DNA of 64,000 nt from Chiloscyllium plagiosum (Eukaryota): assembly GCF_004010195.1 (NCBI RefSeq), contig NC_057719.1:14196364-14260363 (forward strand), given 5' to 3'. The notes beneath the pieces are model-generated. The model was given only the letters and a program-made list of their open reading frames with translations. It did no database searches and had not been told where the DNA came from. Shown one piece after another: positions 1,837-63,255 of this stretch. Position 1 is the stretch's first letter. Each line of letters starts with the position of its first letter. A program made the translations under genes and the position numbers.

Positions 1837-2369
1837 ACGTAGCTTTTTATAAATTCCTACTTCTGGCTCCAGGGCGAGATACAAACACACTAGAAACTTG
1901 GCTTCACATCTAAAAAGCATTGTCTGACCTTTATTCTGATAAAACCTGAATTTATCTTGGGGCAGGGATTTACATATTGATCAATTGAAAATTGCATCTC
2001 CATTCTAACTGATTAAGGACTGAATAGCCATCTAGATTTGTTCAATACATTCGCATAAGTTGTATGACCCTTTGATCATTTACTTATAAATTCTGCGTCC
2101 CATATATTTTCTCTCACTAGCTGCCCAAGGAATGAACAGCGATCCAAAAGCTTGCAGTTTCAAAATAAACTCTGTTGGACTATAACCCAATATCGTGTGA
2201 TTTTTGACTTTGTCTACCCCAATCTAACTCTGGCACCTCCACATCATAATGTCATGTATGTTTACAAAAATCAGGGGTTCCTGTAGTAGAGTTGGAACAA
2301 AGTGAACAGCTGGAACAACATCTCACCAGGTTCAATCTTCTCCACTGCTGTCAGCTATGTATGGATACA

Positions 2370-2724
2370 TAGCTGAAGAAGGGCTAATGCCCGAAACGTC
2401 GATTCTCCTCTTCCCTAGATGCTGCCTGACCTGCTGCGCTTTTCCAGCAACACATTTCCATCTCTGATCTCCAGCATCTGCAGACCTCACTTTCTCCTCA
2501 AAGATTTCAACCTACTGCGAATCCTCTTACAAGGATGCCTTCCTTGAAGAAGCTCCCTTTCTCCCTCTACAAAGGTTTCAGTGAGTCCCTCTCTCACTGC
2601 ACCCCCCCAGGTCATCTCCTCTGCACAGAAGATTCCTGAAGAAGGGCTAATGCCCGAAACGTCGATTCTCCTCTTCCCTAGATGCTGCCTGACCTGCTGC
2701 GCTTTTCCAGCAACACATTTCCAT
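2370..2724 (+). mobile_element. Penelope-derived insertion with two tandem pseudo-LTR copies, each carrying a hammerhead ribozyme core
   Basis: Identical ~90 bp direct repeats beginning CTGAAGA at 2373 and 2636; 15 bp TSD ctatgtatggataca at 2355-2369 and 2725-2739. Confidence 0.8.
2631..2668 (+). ncRNA. Minimal type I hammerhead ribozyme motif
   Basis: CUGAAGA, extra A, stem II GGGC/UAAU/GCCC, GAAA, palindromic ACGU stem III, GUC site at 2663; stem I is very short. Confidence 0.6.
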
Positions 2725-3229
2725 CTATGTATGGATACAATCAAGCCAAGCTTTTAGGGGTCATGAATACAGGGGGTGGTGAGTGATCATAAATAGATCT
2801 CACCTTTCTTTTTCTATTATCATTTAGTCCATTTTTCTAATCAACCTGTTCAGAGATGCTATTGCTCACCTCTGGAGCATGTGGGACTTGAACTCAGGAT
2901 AGGGACACTACCACTACACCACAAGAAGGACCTTAATAGGTCTCATCTTAATTACTGCCTCAAATAATTTCCAATAATATCCTCAGTGTGCCAAACATTG
3001 TGAGGGAATTTAGAATTTACATATGCAGATATGAAGCAGTACATTTCACTAGCCAGAAAAGTTAATTGTCCCAAAATCCTTGGAGCTGGATAGTAAGGTA
3101 TATTTTATACCTGAGACCTGGACAATGCACCTGCAGCTTTACTGGGATTTTGCCTTAGCTGGAGTAGAAATTCTTCCCTTGAGCCCGCTTTGAGCCTTTT
3201 TAAAGACTTCAATTGAACTCACCTCAGTT

Positions 3230-4360
3230 GCAGACTCCCACAGCTATCTGGATTACACCTCCTTCCACCCTGCCTCCTGCAAAAATGCTATCCCGTATTT
3301 CCAATTCCTCCACTTCTGCTGCATTTGCTCCCAGGAGGACAAGTTCCACCACAGAATATGCCAGAGGGCCTCCTTCTTCAAAGACAGCAATTTCTCCTCC
3401 CACATGTTGACGATGCCCTCAGCTTATCTCATCTACTTCCCGCACTCCACCTTCAAGCCCCACCCCTCCAATCGCAGCAAGGACAGAGCCTCCCCCTGGT
3501 CCACACCTTCCACCCCACCAACCTCCATATACATTGCATCATACTCTGCCATTTCCACCGCCTACACACAGGCCCCACCACCACAGATATATTTCCCTCC
3601 CCACCCCATCCGCTTTCCATAAAGACCATTTCCTCCATGAATACCTCATCAGGTCCACACCTCCCACCAACCCACCCTCCCCTCCCGGCACCTTCCCCTG
3701 CCACTCTAGGAATTGCAAAACCTGTGCCCAGACTTCCCCTCTCACCTCCATCCAAGGCCCCAAAGGAGCCTTCCATCAGTTTCACCTGCACATCCACAAA
3801 TGTTATTTATTGTTATCCGTTGCTCTCGATGTGGTGTCCTCTCCATTGGGGAGACAGGGCCCCTACTCACAAAGCACTTTCAGAGAATACCTCCGGAACA
3901 CCCGCACCAACAAAGCCCATCGCCCCGTGGCCGAACACTTCAACTCCCCTTCCCACTCTGCCAAGGACATGCAGGTCCTGGGCCTCCTCCATCGCCACTC
4001 TCTAACCACTCACGCCTGGAGGAAGAATGCCTCATCTTCTGCCTTAGGACCCTCCAACCCCATGGCATTAATGTAGATTTCACCAGTTTCCTCATTTCCC
4101 CTCTCCCCATTTTATCCCAGTTCTAACCTTCCAGCTCAGCACTGCCCTCATGACCTGCCCCACCTGTCAATCTTCCTTCCCACCTATCGACTCCACCCTC
4201 CCCCAACCTATCACCTTTACCCCCACCTCCATCCACCTATAGCACTCTTAGCTACCTTCCCCCAAACCCCTCCCATTTATCTCTCCACTCCCGAGGCTCC
4301 CAGCATCATTCCTGGTGAAAGGCATTTGCCCGAAATGTTGATTTCCCTGCTCCTTGGATC
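3230..4360 (+). mobile_element. Penelope-like element 3' fragment (RT end, GIY-YIG endonuclease, pseudo-LTR), frameshifted
   Basis: Split frames give PGTFPCxxxNCKTC, FTCTSTNVIYC, IRCSRCGxxxIGET, VAEHFNSPSH, TLQPHGINVDF; degenerate hammerhead near 4311-4340. Confidence 0.85.
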
Positions 4361-4598
4361 CCGACTCACCTCAATTGCAACCTAGTGTTGAGCCCACTTG
4401 AAGACTCCAAACTTCCACTAGGATTGTAGAACCCCACAGTCTCCAGGTCAAATATCTTCAGTGGGAGCCAGAAATTAAAACAGCTTCAGCCCATGGAGCA
4501 CTCTGCTTTTTCTGAAGTCTTACTCTCCAGGTGGCATTTGCTGCTATAGAATGTCGGGGCCTGCAGTGTTACTGACTGTTCCACAGGAAGGTCAGCTT

Positions 4599-6265: not shown

Positions 6266-6782
6266 CCTTGTAACTACCCTGGTTATGGATGAGGAATAGT
6301 CACATGTTATGTTTGTTAACTTCGACTGAACCACTTGACAATTCCAATTTATATTTGGTTGACTTAGAAACAACTTTGCTATTTTCACATGTCTTTCTTA
6401 TCTTTGACTCTCGAATGCACATCTTGTGACTTTTACCTTTTTTTATCATAGTATAGGTATCCCACCAGACGTTCTCATTTTGTGTCTTTTCATTTACTAC
6501 GTGGTCATCTTTTCTGACATTGCTAAACTAACTCTCTTCCTGTGCCCCATGTACATTGCATATCTGTGGGTTAAGTCCACATTTCTGATATTTCACAAAA
6601 GTGGTTATTTTATTTGATTAGTGATCCAAAGGTCTGACCTAATGATCCATGGCTTCAAATCTCACCAAGGCAGTTGGAGAATCAAACTTAATGAATTAAA
6701 TTACTCAGGAATAGAAATCTAGCATTCATAATAACAACAAGAAGGAACCGAATTTCTATAGTGCTTGCAATCCATTTTTTGT

Positions 6783-7125: not shown

Positions 7126-7934
7126 CTTTATGTCACACGCAATCTCAGCCACCTATCATCTTGCTGTCTGATGACCTACACTGGGTAACAATTTCTCAAT
7201 TTAAAAATTCTCATCCCATTTTCAAACACCCTCTCCTTGATCTCACTGCGCTCTCCCTTTATAATTGTTTCCAGAATGATGAGTCTCTAAAATATCTGCA
7301 TTAATCTCCAATTCTGGCCTTATCCCAGAATCCATTAGCACTGAGGCACCATGGCATTGTACCTCTGTTAATTTTTTGAATGAACCAAGGCATGAATCGC
7401 ATGACCACACATTTTTCCTGCTATTTTATTTTTTCTTCAAGTGTTTATGAATGGTCTTTTAAAGGTTTCTACTGAATCTGCTTCTGCTATTCAGTCAGTG
7501 GGTATATTCCTGATCACCTTAATTTGCTGTGTTAAAAAAATCTCAATTTCCTTTCTGGGCCTTTTTTGCCAATGATTATAAATCTAAGACCTCTGGTTAC
7601 CAATTTTCCTGTCAGGGTTAAGTTTCTTCTTACTTACTCTCTCAAAGCTTATTATTTTAAAGAGCGTTCATATGTTTGAACGCTGGAGCTGTTTAACTTT
7701 GGTGCCGATATACACATTTTTCAGCAAGTGTCACATGTAGCAGGATTTCAGGACAAAACACACCAAGGGTAACTAGATCTCAGTCACAGACAGATATCGA
7801 GGTCCAAAACAGGGAGAGAATCTCAAGGAGGTGCACGCATACGAAAGCATTAGGAAGAAAATGCTTTAACTGTATTCTGCTTGATGGTAGGGAACTATTG
7901 TGAAATATCAGAAACATGACTTCATCCACAGATA

Positions 7935-8070
7935 GGAGAAAGTGAGGACTGCAGATTCTGGAGATCAGAGCTGAATTATTCAGGAAGGGCTCATGCCCGA
8001 AACGTTGATTCTCCTGTTCCTTGGATGCTGCCTGACCTGCTGCACTTTTCCAGCAACACATTTTCAGCTC
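7935..8070 (+). mobile_element. Penelope-derived short element
   Basis: Pseudo-LTR sequence with gggctcatgcccgaaacg; flanked by duplicated ttcatccacagata. Confidence 0.7.
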
Positions 8071-8399
8071 TTCATCCACAGATATGCAATGTACATGGGG
8101 CACAGGAAGAGAGTTAGTTTAGAAACATGAAAAAAGATGACCACATGGTAAATGAAAAGACACAAAATGAGAATGTCTGGTTGGATACCTATACTATGAC
8201 AAAAAAAAATGGTAAAAGTCACGAGATGTGCAGAAGAAAGTTAAAGACAAGAAAGACATGTGAAAATAGCAAAGATGTTTTTAAGTCAACCAAATATAAA
8301 TTGGAACAGTCAAGTGGTTCACAGACGAATTTGACAAATATAATACATGACAATTTCCTCATTTATAACAGGCGTGCTACATGGAGCAGTGCAGCAGAC

Positions 8400-9240: not shown

Positions 9241-11284
9241 CCCCAATTTGATACTGGTAACTTACACCAGATAACACACAAAAATGGGAGTATTACCACA
9301 TTGCTGTGGGTCTGGAGGCACATATAGGTCAGGCGAGGTATGAGTGGCAGTTTTATTCCCTCAGGGTCAATAGTGAACCAGACGGGACTTTTTTCCTGGC
9401 AATCATCATTCGTCAGATGACAGGGAATCCTCTGAGCACTCGGTCGCTGGAATTCACTGGGGTCTTCATGTTGAAGCTTTTATTGTGCAAGATTTTCAAG
9501 GCAGGTGAGGCAATGTGGATTGGCAGGATTGCACTTTGACATGCTAATAAACATACAAGTGTTGGGTTTGGTACATTTTAAGAGGTATTTTGTTGAAGTG
9601 GCCAGGGAAATGATGTGCTTACGAGATTTGACTGAAGCTCCTCCAGATATTTTTTGATCAACCTGTCCAGAGGTGTCACAACACACCACTGGAGAAGGTG
9701 GAACTGGAGCCCGGGCCTTCTGATCGAGAGGTAGGATCACTACCATAATGCCACAAACTGACAGACAAATTAATTAATTGTAACAGGTAATTCACATTAG
9801 ACAGACACAACTGCAATCTGTCAGAGGACTTCCAATGAGATGGAACTCAACCAAGAATCATTCATGCTAAACAGTGAATGTTAGATAAATTTTAAAAGAA
9901 ATCTCTATTAACTTACTTTATAACACTGACATTGTAGAGAAAGCATATAAAGAGCATCTATTTTTAGTTAATTGTACTGAATATGCAATGCGATTTTTCA
10001 AGAGTGAAAGCAAGAATTTCCTAATCTTGCTTTCTGTCACAACATTTTATTAGCTGTCATCATCCTTCTGCTGTAATATATCTTTCATCTGCTATAAAAT
10101 TAATCATTATTTCCAATATTCCAGCATTCAGCAATCATGTTTTTTTATAACATCTGTTAACTGATTATTGATGTAAAAATCCTGGGGACAGTTTTTCATT
10201 AATATTCTTGAATATAAAGCTTTATTATAGATTTTGCACAGTTATAGTTAGTTGCTGAACGAAGAAAGTGAAATAAATCTCAGTTCAAAAAATATCGATT
10301 AGCTATTTTGGGCTGGAATGTATGAAATTGAATACAATGTTGTTTACAATGCTGACTTTGATCTTAGAGATGTACAGTTTTATGATGAGCAAAAGAATAA
10401 TAAAGCGGTATCGTACTGGGCAAAGCAATGATCAATGAATGACTCTTACTTCTATGGTGGAGAGTGGGGAGGGAATGCTCTGGCATCACGGTGCACTGGT
10501 CATGTGACAACTAACCAGCCGGATTCAGGAAAGGTCAGTCTATTTAGAGAACTGAATGGTACTCCTCGTACATAAGTAATCGCTTTGCTGGATATTTAAC
10601 TGAAACTATTTACATGGCGGAGTAGATTTCTGCCATGCTTCCAGCAGTGCTGGAAGGGCAGCAGTTCTCAGCAAGTACTCCTCTGGCAGGGAGGAGGGAA
10701 GAATTCCTACTGTCAGGCCCAACACTTGCATGTTAATGTTGAGAGTGTGGTGCTGGAAATGCACAGCAAGTCAGGCAGCATTCGAGGAGCAGGAAAATCG
10801 ACTTTTGGAGGGCTTTTGTCCTTCAAACTCTGATCTCCAGCATCTGCAGTCCTTACTTTCGCCTACTTGTATGCTAATTACCACAGCAAACTGCAATCCT
10901 ACCAATCCATATTGCCTCACCCGCCCCGGAAATCTTGTCCTGCAAAACCTTCAAACACGAAGACCCCAGAGAATTCCAGCGACTGAGTGCTCAGAGGATT
11001 CCCTGTCATCTGACCCACGTCGATTGTCAGGAAAAACCCCACCTGGTTCATTAATGTCCTTTAGGGAAGGAAACTGCTATTCTTACCTGGTCACAGCAAT
11101 GTGATTGACTCTTAACTGGCCCCTCTCCGTAATTAGGGATGGGAAATAAATGCTGACCTAGCCAGTGATGCCCTCATCTCATGAATGAATTTTTAAAAAG
11201 TCACCTCTTGCAAAGCTTTCAAATTCATTTCTTCAGTCTGACAAATCTGTCACGTGCTGGCACAAGACTGCATTGACAACAAAA

Positions 11285-22425: not shown

Positions 22426-24630
22426 ATAGAGTCATAGAGATGTACAGCATGGAAACAGACCCTTCAGTCCAACGATCCATGCCGACCAGATATCCCAACC
22501 CAATCTAGTCCCACCTGCCAGCACCCAGACCATATCCCTCCAAACCCTTCCTATTCATAAAACCATCCAAATGCCTCATAAATGTTGCAATTGTACCAGC
22601 CTCCACCACATCCTCTGGCAGCTCATTCCATACACGTACCACTCTCTGTGTGAAAAAGTTGCCCTGTAGGTCTCTTTTATATCTTTCCCCTCTCACCCTA
22701 AACCTATGCCCTCTAGTTCTGGACTCCCCGACCCCAGGGAAAAGACTTTGCCTATTTACCCTATTCATGCCCCTCATAATTTTGTAAACCTCTATAAGGT
22801 TACCCCCTCAGCCTCCGCGCTCCAGGGAAAACAGCCCCAGCCTGTTCAGCCTCTCCCTGTAGCTCAGATGCTCCAACCCTGGCAACATCCTTGTAAATCT
22901 TTTCTGAACCCTTTCAAGTTTCACAACATCTTTCCGATAGGAAGGAGACCAGAACTGCATGCAATATTCCAAAAGTGGCCTAACCAATGTCCTGTACAGT
23001 TGCAACATGACCTCCCAACTCCTGTACTCAATACTCTGACTGATAAAGGAAAGCATACCAAATGCCTTCTTCACTATCCTATCTACCTGTGACTCCACTT
23101 TCAAGGAGCTATGAACCTGCACTCCAAGGTCTCTTTGTTCAGCAACACTTCCTAGGACCTTACCATTAAGTGTATAAGTCCTGCTAAGATTTGCTTTCCC
23201 TAAGCGCAGCACCTTGCATTTATCTGAATTAAACTCATAATTTGAGGAGTTTAATTCTCAGCCCACTACACTCAGCCACTTCTCAGCCCACTGGCCCATC
23301 TGGTCAAGATCCTGTTGTAATCTGAGGTAAGCCTCTTCGCTGTCCACTGCACCTCCAATTTTGGTGTCATCTGCAAACTTACTAATTGTACCTCTTATGC
23401 TCGCATCCAAATCATTTATGTAAATGACAAAAAATAGAGGACCCAGCACCGACCCTTGTGGCACTCCACTCGTCACAGGCCTCCTGTCTGAAAAACAACC
23501 CTCCACCACCACCCTCTGTCTTCTACCTTTGAGCCAGTTCTGTATCCAAATGGCTAGTTCTCCCTTTATTCCGTGAGATCTAACCTTGTTAACCAGTCTC
23601 CCATGGACAACCTTGTCAAACGCCTTACTGAAGTCCATATAGATCACATCTACCCCTCTGACCTCATCAATCCTCTTTGTTACTTCCTCAAAAAACTCAA
23701 TCAAGTTTGTGAGACATGATTTCCCATGCACAAAGCCATGTTGACTATCCCTAATCAGTCCTTGCCTTTCCAAATACATGTACATCCTGTCCCTCAGGAT
23801 TCCCTCCAACAACAGGCTCACTGGTCTATAGTTACCTGGCTTGTCCTTACTACCCTTCTTAAACAGTGGCACTATGTTAGCCAACCTCCAGTCTTCTAGC
23901 ACCTCACTTGTGACTATCGATGATACAAATATCTCAGCAAGAGGCCCAGCAATCACTTCTCTTGCTTCCCATAGAGTTCTAGGGTACACCTGATCAGTTC
24001 CTGGGGCCTTATCCATTTTTATGCGTTTCAAGACATCCAGCACTTCCTCCTCTGTAATATGGACATTTTGCAAGATGTCACCACCTATTTCCCTACAGTC
24101 TATATCAAACATATCCTTTTCCACAGTAAATACTGATGCAAAATACTCATTTGAAATCTCCTCCATTTTCTGTGGCTCCACACAAAGGCCGCCTTGTTGA
24201 TCTTTGACAGGCCCTATTCTCTCCCTAGTTACCCTTTTGTCCTTAATGTATTTGCAAAAACTCTTTGGATTCTCCTTAATTTTATTTGCCAAAACTATCT
24301 CATGTCCCCTTTTTGCCCTCCTGATTTCCCTCTTAAGTATACTCCTACTTCCTTTACACTCTTCTAAGAATTCACTCGATCTATCCTGTCTATACCTGAC
24401 ATGTGCTTCCTTCTTTTTCTTTACGAAACCCTCAATTCCTTTAGTCATCCAGCATTCCCTATACCTACCAGCCTTTCCTTTCACCCTAACAGGAATATAC
24501 ATTCTCTGGATTCTCGTTATCTCATTTCTGAAAACTTCCCATTGTCCAGCCGTCCGTTTACCTGCGAACATCTACCCCCAATCACCTTTCGAAAGATCTT
24601 GCCTAATACCGTCAAAATTGGCCTTTCTCC
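22426..24630 (-). mobile_element. 5'-truncated CR1-group LINE with a 437 aa ORF2 RT remnant (23258-24571)
   Basis: [34 protein letters not shown] and KFADDTK motifs; disrupted near 23210-23270; complete 3' UTR. Confidence 0.95.
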
Positions 24631-29409: not shown

Positions 29410-29585
29410 TGCAAGGAAAAACCGAGAGAACTGCAGATGCTGAAAATCAGAAATTGTTGGAAAAGCTCAGCAGGTCTGGCAGCATCTTCAGGCAGGGTCA
29501 TTGGACCTGAAATGTTGACTCTGATTTCTCTCCACAGATGCTGCCAGACCTGTTGAGCTTTCCCAGCAACTTCAGTTTTTGTTAT
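29410..29585. mobile_element. Fold-back Penelope-derived element
   Basis: Inverted arms (aaagctcagcaggtctggcagcatct / agatgctgccagacctgttgagcttt). Confidence 0.7.
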
Positions 29586-31709: not shown

Positions 31710-32136
31710 TTAGATTAGATTCCCTACAGTGTGGAAACAGGCCCTTCATCCCAACAAGTCCACACCGACCCTCCTGAAGAAGGGCTAATGCCCGAAACGT
31801 CGATTCTCCAGTTCCCTAGATGCTGCCTGACCTGCTGCGCTTCTCCAGCAACACATTTCCATCTCTGATCTCCAGCATCTGCAGACCTCATTTTCTCTCC
31901 GAAGACCCATTTTCCTCTGACTAATGCACCTAACACTATGGGCAATTTAGCACGGCCAATTCACCTGAACTGCACATCTTTGGACTGTAGGAGGGAACCA
32001 GAGCACCCGGAGGAAACCCACGCAGACACGGGGAGAATGTGCAAACTCCACACAGACAGTCACCAAAAGCTGGAATTGAACCTGGGACCATGGTGCTGTG
32101 AGGCAGCAGTGCTAACCACTGAGCCACTGTGTTGCC
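31710..32136 (-). mobile_element. HE1/V-SINE-like SINE with a nested Penelope pseudo-LTR (31773-31895, plus strand)
   Basis: SINE tail split by ctgaagaagggctaatgcccgaaacgtc... Confidence 0.85.
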
Positions 32137-32804: not shown

Positions 32805-34160
32805 TTGAGAAAGGAGGTACTGGCACTCAAGGGGGTGCAGAGGACGTGCATGAGGATGATTCTGAAGTTGAGGGGATTGACTTATGAGGAGAGATTGAGT
32901 AGAGTGGGACTATACTCATTGGAATTGAGAAGAATGAGGGAGGACCTTATTGAAACATGCAAAATTGTGAAGGGAATAGATAACATAGAAGCAGGGAGGT
33001 TGTTTCCACTGGTGGGTGAAACTAGAACTAGGGGGCATAGCCTCAAAATAAGGGGGAGCAGATTTAAGACTGAGTTGAGGAGGAACTTCTTCACCCAAAG
33101 GATTGTGTTACATTCTGTTATTAAAGGATGTAATACCAGAACATTTAGAAATATGTAATGTAATCAAGCAGAGTGAGCACAGATTTTAAAAGTGAAATTA
33201 TGTCAGGCAAATTTATTAGAATTCATTGAGGGGGTAACAAGCAGGATAGATAAAGGAGAACCCGTTGAAGTAATAGATTTGGATTTATAATGGGTGTTCA
33301 ATAAAAAACCGCACACAAGGCTATTTAATAAGGTAAGAGCCCAGGGTATATATTAGTATGGATAAAGGATTAGCTAACTAATAGAAGACAGAGAGTCGGG
33401 ATGGGGGGCTGTTGTTCTGAGTGATAACATGAAACTGTAATGAATGATTTGGATGATGGAAATGAATGTACTATTGTTACATTTGTGGATGACACAGTAT
33501 CAGGTGGGAAGTCAGGTACTGAGGAAGACACAAAAAGTCTCCAGGTAAAGTGAGAGGGCAAAAACTTGGTAGATGGAATATAAAGTGGGAAAATGTGAGT
33601 TTATACCCTGTGGCAGGAAGAGTAGACGAGCTGGATATAATTTAAATGGAGAAAGATTGTGGAAAGTTGCAGCATCGAAGGATTTGAGAGCCCTCATTCA
33701 TGAATCACAAAAATCTAATGTGCAAGTTCAGCAAGAAGGCCTTTATTTCAAAGGGAATGAAAAACAAAAATAGGGAAGCCTTAATAAAACTATGCAAGGG
33801 TCTAATAAGGCCACAGTTGAAATACCGTGAACACGTTTGGTCCCCTTATCTCAGAAGAGATAGACTGAAATTGGATGCAATCCAAAGAAAGAGGGAAAAA
33901 CAATGACTGCGGATGCTGGAAACCAGATTCTGGATTAGTAGTGCTGGAAGAGCACAGCAGTTCAGGCAGCATCCGAAGCTCCTTGGATGCTACCTGAACT
34001 GCTGTGCTCTTCCAGCGCCACTAATGCATTCCAAAGAAAGTCCATTGGGTTAATCTTGAACATGCAGGGATTTTCTTATGAAGACAGGGTGAGTAGGTTG
34101 GGACGATACCAGTTGGAGTTTGGAAGAATGAGAGGCAACCTTATTAAAACGGACAAGATT
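32805..34160 (+). mobile_element. Decayed CR1-group LINE fragments
   Basis: YEERLSRVGLYSLE, IRPQLKYREHVWSP motifs. Confidence 0.75.
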
Positions 34161-49814: not shown

Positions 49815-51280
49815 ACAATCGGTGCGGGAGTATGCCATTCTGCCCATCAATCCTGCACCACCATTCATTATGATCATGGCTGATCATCCTCAATCAGTAT
49901 CCTGTTCCTGCCTTACCTCCATAACCCTTCATTCCACTATCCTTGAGAGCTCTATCCAACTCTTTCTTAAACGAATCCAGAGACTGGGCCTCCACTGCCC
50001 TCTGGGGCTGAGCATTCCACACAGCCACCACTCTCTGGGTGAAGAAGTTTCTCCTCATCTCTGTCCTAAATGGCCTACCCCTTATTTTTAAGCTATGTCC
50101 TCTGGTTCGGGACTCACCCATCAGCGGAAACATGTTTCCTGCCTCCAGAGTGTCCAATCCTTTAATAATCTTATACNNNNNNNNNNNNNNNNNNNNNNNN
50201 NNNNNNNNNNNNNNNNNNNNNNNNNNNNNNNNNNNNNNNNNNNNNNNNNNNNNNNNNNNNNNNNNNNNNNNNNNNNNNNNNNNNNNNNNNNNNNNNNNNN
50301 NNNNNNNNNNNNNNNNNNNNATTTAGGTAGTAATCTGCCTTCCTGTTCTTGCCACCAAAGTGGATAACCATACATTAAACTGCATCTGCCATGCATCTGT
50401 CCACTCACCTAACCTGTCTAGGTCACCTTGTAATCTCCTAACATCCTCCTCACATTTCACCCTGCCACCCAGCTTAGTATCATCAGCAAATTTGCTAATA
50501 TTACTATTAATACCATCTTCTATATCATTAACATATATTGTAAAAAGCTGCGGTCCCAGCACGGATCCCTGCGGTACCCCACTGGTCAACGCCTGCCATT
50601 CCGAAAGGGAGCCGTTTATCACTACTCTTTTTGTTTCCTGTCAGCCAACCAATTTTCAATCCAAATCTGTACTTTGCACCCAATACCATGCGCCCTAATT
50701 TTGCCCACTAACCTCCTGTGTGGGACTTTATCAAAGGCTTTTGGAAAGTCCAGGTACACTACATCTACTGGATCTCCCTTGTCCATCTTCAGAATTACAT
50801 CCTCAAAAAATTCCAGAAGATTAGTCAAGCCCCTTCATAAATCCATGCTGACTCCGACTTATCCTGTTACTGCTATCCAGATGTGTCGTAATTTCATCCT
50901 TTATAATTGACTCCAGCATCTTTCCCACCACTGAGGTCAGACTAACTGGTCTACAATTTCCTGCTTTCTCTCTCGCTCCTTTCTTAAAAAGTGGTACAAC
51001 ATTAGCCACCCTCCAATCCGCAGGAACTGATCCTGAGTCTATTGAACTCTGGAAAATAATCACCAACGCATCCACGATTTCTGGAGCCACCTCCTTCAGT
51101 ACCCTGAGATGTAGACCATCAGGCCCTGGGGACTTAACAGCCTTCAGACCTAACAGTCTCTCCAACACCAATTCCTGGCAAATATAAATTCCCTTCAGTT
51201 CAGGTTCTTCAGCCACTGTTACCTCTGGGAGATTGCTTGTGTCTTCCCCAGTGAACACAGATCTGAAGTACCAATTCAGG
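49815..51280 (-). mobile_element. Relatively young CR1-group LINE fragment spanning an assembly gap
   Basis: [37 protein letters not shown] and KFADDTK motifs. Confidence 0.9.
50177..50320. other. Assembly gap (144 N)
   Basis: Run of N. Confidence 1.
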
Positions 51281-51349
51281 CAAGACAAGGGTTGCTAAAT
51301 TGAAGAAATAGCCGCCAACTTCAGCAAAGGCTCAATTTAGTATATTTCA

Positions 51350-53094: not shown

Positions 53095-53345
53095 ATGAAG
53101 CAAAGAACTGCGGATGCTGGGCACCTGAGGCAAAAACTGAAATCACATGAGAAACTCAGCAGGTCTGGCAGCATTGTCAGAGAGAAAGCAGAGTTAACAT
53201 TTCGGGTCCAGAATGTGGAATGAGGAAGGGCTTATGCCCGAAACATCGATTCTCCTGCTTCTCGGATGCTGCCTGACCAGCTGTGCTTTTCCAGCATCAC
53301 AATCTCGACTGATCTCCAGCATCTGCAGTCCTCACTTTCTCCTAC
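53095..53345. mobile_element. Penelope-derived pseudo-LTR pieces with a mutated hammerhead core
   Basis: tgaggaagggcttatgcccgaaacatcg at 53221. Confidence 0.7.
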
Positions 53346-60700: not shown

Positions 60701-62504
60701 TTAATGAGATCATGGTTAATCTGTGCCCAACCCAGTGTGACATTTGTCTGATACCCCTTAGTACCTTCATTTAACAAAAACAAATCCATGTCAGATTTAA
60801 AATTAACAATTCATCTAGAAGCAACTGCCATTTGTGGAAGAGAGCTCCAAATCTCTCCCATCTTTTATGTGTTGAAGTGCTTCCTAATATCTCTCCCAAA
60901 TGGTCTAGCTCTAGGTTTTGGGCTATGGCCCTCTCGGACTGACATGTTGCGAATTGTTTCTCAGTGAAAGAGAAATGAACCTGAGAGGTTTGAATGGATG
61001 GAACAAGGTAGTCACCATTCATTGGTGAAATTCCAACCACCATTTATGGCATCAGGAAAACTTTTCTTGGTCAAGAATCTGATTTCTTTTATTCATATCA
61101 TTTTTCCCCTTCCTTTCTTGCTATTGCTCATAGAATACAGGGAGAGGAAAATTCTACCCATGGAGACAAGTGATCAAATTACTTATGGTTAGGTCTCTGA
61201 GGTCTCCAATTAGCTTAATAAATACTTTTCTTCTGAATTTCGATTCACGACCCAGCATGCGGTTTTCCTGAGAAACTAAGTTTTTCAGAGGAAGCTATAG
61301 CTCAAAGCAAATTTTGGCATAATTGAAGCTAAGTTCCATGGACAAAAACAACGAAAATGTCCTGAAATGTAACATAGCTCTAGGTGGTAACATCTCTTGT
61401 TGCAATAGCAAATCTAAAATATCACGTTTTGGCTATTTGACAGTACACAGAGTGCACATAAGTTTGGCCAGAGAAACATCCAGCAATGTTTTTTTCAAAG
61501 CGTCTCTGGCAATCTGCTCACATCTACAATTACATAACACCAAATGAATTACCTCATGAAAGTTGCAGAGTGGGTTAAGACTAAACTGCTCAGAGGCAAA
61601 TGTTCTGAAATGGCTAAGCACGTGTGTCTGCTGTTCCCATTTATATGTTGAAGTTGTGGTTTGAAGAAAGTGTTTTTTTTATTATCAAAGTGCGTTCCCA
61701 GAAGCTTTCACAAATTGAAACTTTAATGAGTATTTCCTTCTGAGGTTTACAAGGTGTTCACCATTTCATTCCTCTGACTGCTGGTATTTGCATTCACCCT
61801 CCAACACTCCTCAAATCTATGGGACAACTGTATGACTGCATGGCATGTTAAATCTGGAATCACAAACAGTTGGACGTAAACGTAGGCAAGTGTGAGATTA
61901 TGCATCAAAGTGAAGAAGACAATCAGGGATTAAAGAAGATGGCATCAATCCTAAAACAGAGGAAGGAACAAAAGCAGAAGCAGGAAAAAGATTTGTCAAG
62001 CAGAAACATGAAACGAGGAAGTGTTTATTTATTTGTTCGTGGGACATGAGTGTTGCAGCTGGACCAGCATATATTATCCATCCCTAATTATCCTGGAGAA
62101 AGTAATGGTGAGCAGCTTTCTTGAACTGCGGCTGTCAATGGTTACAGGGACAACAACAATGCTGTCAGGAAAAGGGTCTCAGGATTTTTGCTCAGCGACA
62201 ATGTTGGAACAGGGATATATGTGCCAATCCAGGAAGATGAGAACAAGCATAGTGGTCCCATACATCCGCTATACTTCATCTTTAAGGTGGTTGAGTTTGT
62301 GGGTTTTTAGAACGTGCTTTCAAAAGTATCTTGGTCAGTTAGTCCAGTGCATCTTGCAAATGGTCAACACTATTCCCGTCATGTAGCGGTAGTGAAGGGA
62401 ATTGGCTTTGAAGGTTGTGGAGGAATACAGATCAAGTGGGCTGCTCTGTCCTGGACAGTGTCAAACTCTTTGAGTGTTATTAGAGTGAACCCCATCCAAG
62501 GAAA

Positions 62505-62715
62505 ATGTGAGGACTGCAGATCCTGGAAAGCAGAATTGAGAGTGTGGTGCTGGAAAAGCACAGCCGGTCTGGCAGCATCCGAGGAACAGGAGATTTGACA
62601 TTTCAGGCATAAGCTCATCATCAGGATGAAGGGTTCATGCTCAAAACGTCAATTCTCCTACTCCTCGGATGCTGCCAGACCTGTTGCGCTTTTCCAGAAT
62701 CACACTCGCAACTCT
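62505..62715. mobile_element. Fold-back Penelope-derived element nested in an older LINE/SINE remnant (62020-62930)
   Basis: Inverted arms; degenerate hammerhead cores on both strands; duplicated tgaaccccatcca flanks. Confidence 0.7.
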
Positions 62716-63255
62716 GAACCCCATCCAGGTATCTGAATGGTATTTCATCACATACCTCTGTAGATGGTGGACAGGTATTGAGGTGATGAGATGTGAGTTA
62801 TTTGCCACAGAAACCCTAGTCTCTGACACTCTTTTGTAACCATATTGTCAAAGTTCAGCTTCTGGTCAATGGTAACCTCTAGGATGTTGGTGATGGTGTG
62901 TTCAGTGATGATAACGTGATTGAACATCAAAGGAAATTAACAGAGATAAATTACTTTAAGGGTATAAAAAGAATGGAATTGATTTTTTGCACTAACCTGA
63001 CACAGTGACCAATAACATACAGCACTGACTTCAGAGTTCCATTTCAACCCATCATCTAAACTCCTAATCAGGTGAGATACTGGGATTGAAATTGGCTTTC
63101 AGCTATGGAATAAAATGGGTGGCCTTAAATTGGCAGCCTAGATTACATTACCATGGCTGAATTTTATTTCTTACTGAAGTGATAAGCATACTATTATTGA
63201 TTCTGTCCTCCTGCCAAAGAGCAGAGCCATCTTCACCACTAGCCCAATGGACTAA

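Follow-up and report, generated by a model that had tools for sequence, protein, structure and literature searches.

The window analysed here, a stretch of 64,000 nt of Chiloscyllium plagiosum DNA, carries at 2355-2739 a short insertion, the cassette, in which two hammerhead ribozyme cores stand on one strand between the copies of a target-site duplication (TSD). The parts between these copies can be matched to one Penelope-like element (PLE) family, and the features are given below with the evidence on which each was placed.

2351 to 2376, strand not assigned: putative fold-back 5' junction with 12-nt arms (complementarity, DNA fold versus shuffles, reverse-complement check).
2355 to 2369, plus strand: left TSD, 15 bp, an exact repeat of 2725-2739.
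2373 to 2463, plus strand: PLE terminal module, copy 1, with the core at 2373-2400 followed by the 3' module to the tail-less family end; its upstream stem I strand is absent (identity to copy 2, family alignment, stem tables).
2464 to 2498, plus strand: PLE "tail" of 35 nt, which stops at the second family 3' terminus (read loose ends, window copies).
2499 to 2534, plus strand: PLE 5' leader, which comes after the tail in longer family copies (other-locus contigs bridge 2469-2552).
2535 to 2631, plus strand: probable start of the PLE ORF, roughly its initial 32 codons, from ATG 2535 (MPSLKKL...) (family contigs tile 2502-2631).
2631 to 2632, plus strand: inner junction, from the ORF side to the ATTC just upstream of the hammerhead (in all four runs the usual pre-2632 sequence differs from the spacer).
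2632 to 2726, plus strand: PLE terminal module, copy 2, a complete minimal hammerhead that runs on as far as the tail-less 3' end; the core is at 2636-2663, and in stem I 2630-2635 pairs to 2664-2669 around a single U-U mismatch (family alignment, stem tables, loose ends behind 2717-2720).
2725 to 2739, plus strand: right TSD (exact repeat; contigs of runs X1 and X4 start exactly at 2725).

A preliminary description of this DNA had reported identical direct repeats at 2373 and 2636, and sequence comparison bears this out: 2373-2463 and 2636-2726 agree at 91 of 91 nt, an identity that reaches far past the core quoted there. Both cores read CTGAAGA-A-GGGC(TAAT)GCCC-GAAA-CGTC, and the predicted GUC cuts are present in the sequence as had been claimed, after C2400 and C2663, at a spacing of 263 nt. 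The two copies of the perfect TSD, CTATGTATGGATACA, at 2355-2369 and 2725-2739, agree at every base, and the match goes no further on either side. Because its first 2 nt are also matched by the element end, its true length may be 13-15 bp. The unit count in the cassette is 354/263, or 1.35, and TRF found no array there. Elsewhere in the window, a two-copy tandem duplication with a 172-nt unit, TC/CA microsatellites and 95% matches lies at 1195-1535.

To read the spacer between the two modules, we relied on the family at large. Four of the 24 listed runs were used: three DNA runs (as contigs) and one poly(A) RNA run (as raw reads) were aligned to 2464-3100 at 90% likeness. The RNA sample represents about 2 in 100 of that run's reads, and the best-matching DNA run may be the window's own source. 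In all four runs, loose ends with mixed flanks cluster behind 2496-2499 and 2717-2720, and the flanks behind 2498 are heterogeneous throughout (agreement 0.34-0.49). Because the loose ends there carry mixed flanks, we take these positions to be two family 3' termini bounding the 35-nt tail. For an Anolis PLE, two internal start sites bound the tail in vitro (PMC11167929). Contigs from other loci, with 2-8 differences each, tile 2469-2631, and summed family depth over 2508-2617 is about 1e5-8e5, compared with 12-21 in the single-copy flank. Since other-locus contigs tile it at such depth, the spacer is what the family natively carries downstream of its tail.

The frame that opens at ATG 2535 (2535-2631) is probably the start of the PLE ORF, as judged from sequence. 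The ORFs of Anolis and rotifer PLEs are described as starting in or just after the terminal repeat (PMC11167929; PMC3846280). The cassette's C-run at 2602-2608 has one base more than many family contigs have; one base is absent from this run in 28, 20 and 31 contigs. A protein search with the spacer frame gave no match among 15 candidates, and when 120 PLE proteins were compared with the spacer by tblastn, the matches were all short and out of place. The read-through peptide ranked 69 of 1001 by a profile of 25 full-length PLE N-termini. The earlier label of "non-coding" was not confirmed for a spacer that consists of PLE leader and probable ORF start.

The terminal module was matched at 13 other loci in the window (E up to 0.01), several of them short or inverted stubs. 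Of eight other loci tested, three have TSDs of 11-15 bp and five have repeats of at most 7 bp; two end no more than 3 nt from the cassette's 3' end. Copies at 53221, 62624 and 31774 stop at the tail terminus, 2498, and stubs such as those at 31774, 7984 and 53221 begin at the hammerhead front edge, where the inner junction also falls. Two related hammerheads, at 4308 (72% identity) and 6172 (88%), have remains of PLE reverse transcriptase (RT) and GIY-YIG domains immediately upstream. It is because related hammerheads adjoin PLE ORF remains that we identify the module as a PLE terminal repeat; as read from these neighbours, RT plus GIY-YIG membership holds for the family rather than for the cassette's exact subfamily. 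A degraded frame at 3411-4073 has 56% identity to a Chiloscyllium punctatum protein, which itself has weak RVT_1 and GIY-YIG matches below the curated cut-offs, and Pfam found nothing in two degraded frames at 3217-4073. The CX2-5CxxC linker before GIY-YIG, a mark of Neptune and Nematis PLEs (PMC8557442), is seen in the ORF remnant 3411-4073 and in the C. punctatum protein. The cassette family is probably of Neptune type, with the linker read in a neighbouring remnant.

Several of these neighbours have structures of their own. A worn PLE 3' half (RT thumb, zinc-finger linker and GIY-YIG) occupies 3104-4371, on the same strand as the cassette and 370 bp downstream, and runs into its own worn hammerhead at 4308-4371. 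At 7920-8084, an inverted tail and a direct hammerhead stub have a 15-bp TSD and an end at most 2 nt from the cassette's 3' end; by eye, some 170 nt on the right-hand side of the insertion at 7984 (8070-8250) seem to recur, inverted, near 6400-6570 (minus strand, 6560-6400). Head-to-head hammerhead modules, one with a tail, lie within a 13-bp TSD at 62486-62727. The cassette's closest relative (88 of 91 identical) is a hammerhead-plus-tail stub at 31774-31899 that starts at the core and lies within a tRNA-SINE-like repeat, which we take to be HE1-like. More inverted or palindromic related stubs are found at 10746-10864, 29414-29570, 33907-34016 (with an 11-bp flanking repeat) and 53100-53343. 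The window also contains LINE-type reverse transcriptase remnants at 23258-24571 (minus strand; RVT_1, E 1.7e-23) and 50434-51294, and a 144-base assembly gap, the N run at 50177-50320.

The cassette had further been described as antisense to a host gene. This was not confirmed, since no host gene was identified and there is only a candidate exon on the minus strand. This exon, the best splice-scored candidate near the cassette, spans 635-721 with a 29-aa open frame and had no match in Pfam, solved structures or Atlas. Pfam gave no credible match for 12 candidate frames.

Both copies of the hammerhead have the core, the extra base, a 4-bp stem II and the ACGU palindrome, which supports the earlier assignment to PLE-type minimal hammerheads; an Rfam scan of the window gave no match at the gathering score. 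In the folding model, stem II forms with pair probabilities of 0.98-1.0 in both copies, and copy 2 pairs weakly in stem I (about 0.15). In copy 1 stem I is missing altogether, as had been observed before, with G2372 facing G. In a double hammerhead, each cut requires the partner copy's upstream stem I strand, and the modelled dimer helix probabilities are at most 0.003. An intramolecular cut would be possible only at 2400, because copy 1 lacks stem I and only copy 2 forms the core. According to this model, 2400 could be at most the one cleavable site in one RNA molecule. Minimal PLE hammerheads, for which a dimer model has been proposed, are described as weak in vitro (PMC4209133) or protein-assisted (PMC11167929), and eight of nine Xenopus dimers are reported to have shown no cleavage when tested (bioRxiv 10.64898/2026.07.22.740005). 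The predicted 263-nt circle is 47% paired versus 48% in shuffles. Its folding energy is modestly better than that of shuffles (z -2.1, 6/200), and in it the 3' strand of stem I is sequestered elsewhere.

The preliminary description overlooked a fold-back hairpin at the 5' junction. TAG (2370-2372) together with CTGA matches, as its reverse complement, the target DNA left of the TSD, and the hairpin at 2351-2376 has 12 bp with arms that are 100% complementary; as DNA, this piece folds with a z of -5.66, and 0 of 200 shuffles were as good. CTGA is common to the fold-back and the start of the hammerhead, a 4-nt microhomology. By this analysis the junction reads as fold-back synthesis followed by microhomology joining, and this target-derived fold-back at the left junction leaves copy 1 without stem I. 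The 3' end of the cassette is the family's tail-less terminus, with 2 nt common to the target. An X1 contig (136 nt, wholly aligned) and an X4 contig start exactly at the TSD start, 2725, and X7 has a hole there. Filled and empty alleles that exist side by side should give a contig fork at 2725; to judge by these contig starts, the insertion is probably polymorphic. The TSD and the PLE module support the earlier suggestion of a young insertion made by Penelope-type machinery.

In each of the four runs, the sequence that normally stands before 2632, at the inner junction, ends ...ACTTTCCTC. Because what is normally found upstream of ATTC differs from the spacer, 2631/2632 is a genuine junction, linking about codon 32 to the ATTC at which family stubs begin. 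It is present once in the 64 kb window. One family contig departs from the alignment exactly at 2631, which suggests that there is no microhomology at this point. Two origins were rejected: splicing or back-splicing, as the native sequence before ATTC ends CCTC and not AG, and hammerhead cleavage, as the junction sits 32 nt upstream of the cut. Tail-to-head joints from 2498 to 2631-2634 occur in at least 33, at least 10 and at least 6 contigs (X1, X4 and X7, respectively) and in at least 2 RNA reads, in each case as defined by its two end points. Dimers joined at the hammerhead front edge are therefore found repeatedly, with other upstream ends.

Two alleles bear on the template. C2410/C2673 is common to both modules and makes up 2-3% of family depth and 31 of 670 RNA reads; because an allele this rare is common to both, we infer that the modules came from one template. 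C2556 is near-private, with residual depths of 34, 35 and 149 against 43,000-199,000, in contigs that drop rare variants and so limit estimates of depth both for this allele and for the junction. Next to the junction the RNA depth comes to 0.59, no more than one read, versus about 680 on the hammerhead, in a poly(A)-selected library from which circles would be missing; in a huge family, even 1 in 680 could mean many junction-bearing loci. No sharp starts or ends were seen in the RNA run, and no contig bridging the inner junction or the whole stretch was found among the 24 listed of about 126,000. Contig depth summed at 2632 (80,589 in X1) was not accepted as a copy number, because chance extension and palindromic junctions of the very deep hammerhead module could account for it. 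Of the 5 nt in front of the junction, four pair with the hammerhead's 3' strand, and the junction raises stem I from 3/4 pairs (native, copy 6176) to 5/6, or 7/9 further out. Only 2 of 164 possible ends (3 with G-U) would lengthen stem I likewise, a pattern that was noticed post hoc. This complementarity could reflect an RNA splint circularising the ends, microhomology in cDNA fold-back, or selection for a better ribozyme.

We consider it probable, with considerable room for doubt, that the cassette is one young insertion of an endonuclease-bearing PLE, made by TPRT with a one-off template jump. Reverse transcription would have started at the tail-less site and run to the hammerhead front edge (ATTC), where the RNA is assumed to start. 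The reverse transcriptase would then have jumped, on that RNA or an identical one, to about codon 32, a site 168 nt downstream of where it had first started, and a second pass would have taken in leader, tail and hammerhead and come back to this boundary. Both passes end there, at 2632 and 2373. The folded-back target end may then have added TAG(CTGA), annealed to the CTGA of the hammerhead and closed the 5' junction. What results is a partial tandem with neither promoter nor ORF that carries its hammerheads as passengers, and the cassette is most likely an ordinary copying accident and not a dedicated circular-RNA element. For PLEs, earlier work describes partial tandems, truncation at the 5' end and a tail of 30-40 bp (PMC8557442, PMC3846280), and snap-back and template jumping were shown for R2 (PMC11371274). 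In the literature searched, we did not find template jumping shown for a PLE enzyme.

Identical modules with a rare allele in common would also be left if a PLE reverse transcriptase had copied a pre-existing 263-nt RNA for 1.35 laps, with the template being a proto-retrozyme: either a circle joining the 5' AUUC to an internal 3' end with CUCCU as the splint, or the transcript of a non-autonomous master of low copy number that has an internal deletion. We hold this to be possible, though clearly less likely than the template jump. The longer stem I (5/6 pairs, which 2 of 164 ends would give) and the modestly favourable energy of the circle (z -2.1, 6/200) fit such a template. The length of 263 nt also falls within the 150-450-nt range given for animal retrozymes (PMC7229834), and retrozymes have been reported in one chondrichthyan genome (bioRxiv 10.64898/2026.07.22.740005). 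However, a circle does not require a second stop at the hammerhead front edge, and only 1.35 units are present, in no array that TRF detects. The circle is also just 47% paired with its stem I 3' strand sequestered, C2556 is near-private, and the junction has at most one RNA read. A cDNA end folding back onto its own stem I complement would, we infer, leave the same complementarity. That the insertion is the genomic copy of a circular or end-joined 263-nt PLE RNA, or a member of a small unrecognised junction family, is in our view rather doubtful. We judge it equally doubtful that the hammerhead's 3' strand splinted the RNA ends and lengthened stem I, which in the circular or end-joined reading would make the cassette, still segregating, a record of a retrozyme unit arising from an autonomous Penelope element.

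The order of the parts is that of a full element minus its middle, and deletions are described in PLE copies (PMC3846280). We weighed the loss of the ORF and most of the pLTR from a longer hammerhead-ORF-pLTR-hammerhead insertion after integration, and find it improbable: the right breakpoint is the very boundary at which independent stubs begin, the contig leaving the alignment at 2631 suggests no microhomology, and with identical repeats and a perfect TSD the insertion looks too young. The lack of a bridging contig among the 24 listed of about 126,000 could point to an assembly artefact fusing two family fragments. This is very improbable, given that the outer ends carry an exact TSD and a target-derived fold-back, that rare alleles are common to both modules, and that in two runs contigs diverge precisely where the TSD begins.

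The cassette belongs to a known class, namely truncated, partial-tandem PLE insertions with minimal hammerheads. Like the partial-tandem PLEs described (PMC8557442; PMC3846280; PMC11167929), it has a minimal hammerhead in a terminal repeat, a long TSD, 5' truncation, two 3' termini 35 nt apart, a head-to-tail duplication and an ORF start (probable here) just downstream of hammerhead and tail. Unlike those described there, its units are tiny and both start at the hammerhead, its upstream unit stops in the ORF start and not in the tail, and its 5' junction is a fold-back of target DNA. With metazoan PLE hammerheads (PMC4209133) it shares CUGAnGA, the extra base before stem II, GAAA, the palindromic ACGU without loop 3 and a short stem I. 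Cervera and De la Pena 2014 describe most motifs as truncated PLEs with low in vitro activity (PMC4209133); close pairs there (about 100-700 bp) are on opposite strands, whereas the cassette pair is on the same strand and has a stem II of 4 bp. Fold-back synthesis before 5' joining is also reported for R2 insertions, as is template jumping from finished cDNA to another RNA (PMC11371274). In this case, however, the enzyme class is another one, and the cassette's fold-back copies target DNA beside a 15-bp TSD.

The preliminary description had presented the locus as a retrozyme-like cassette. Its two cores, their 263-nt spacing, the TSD and the PLE origin stand, and the likeness to animal non-LTR retrozymes (PMC7229834; bioRxiv 10.64898/2026.07.22.740005) extends to two type I cores on one strand 263 nt apart, a long TSD (15 bp; criterion >4 bp) and derivation from PLE termini. 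The idea of a device that releases a 263-nt RNA found no support, with 1.35 units, a native PLE 5' spacer, a copy 1 that forms no core and a circle 47% paired. The cassette falls outside the retrozymes on four tests: two full units, a complete ribozyme per unit, canonical form and a highly paired circle. In contrast to retrozymes as described, it has 1.35 units, one incomplete ribozyme and a weakly paired circle; its hammerhead is minimal and not canonical with helix III and a loop-loop contact, and its spacer is PLE leader and probable ORF start. This comparison is by described features, and chondrichthyan retrozyme consensus sequences may bear on the unit. No description of the shark unit was found in the literature searched, which leaves most subscription papers outside its coverage.

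As partial tandems are already known from PLEs, the value of a one-off PLE stub is small. Nonetheless, PLE mechanics are recorded in a 385-bp piece: both passes end at the hammerhead front edge and not at the cut site, the tail-less start was used, and the 5' end was sealed by a fold-back of target DNA. The link from PLEs to retrozymes has so far been argued from co-occurrence and phylogeny. If the inner junction were recurrent, or were found in circular RNA, it would provide a route, open to testing, by which animal retrozymes could arise from autonomous PLEs.
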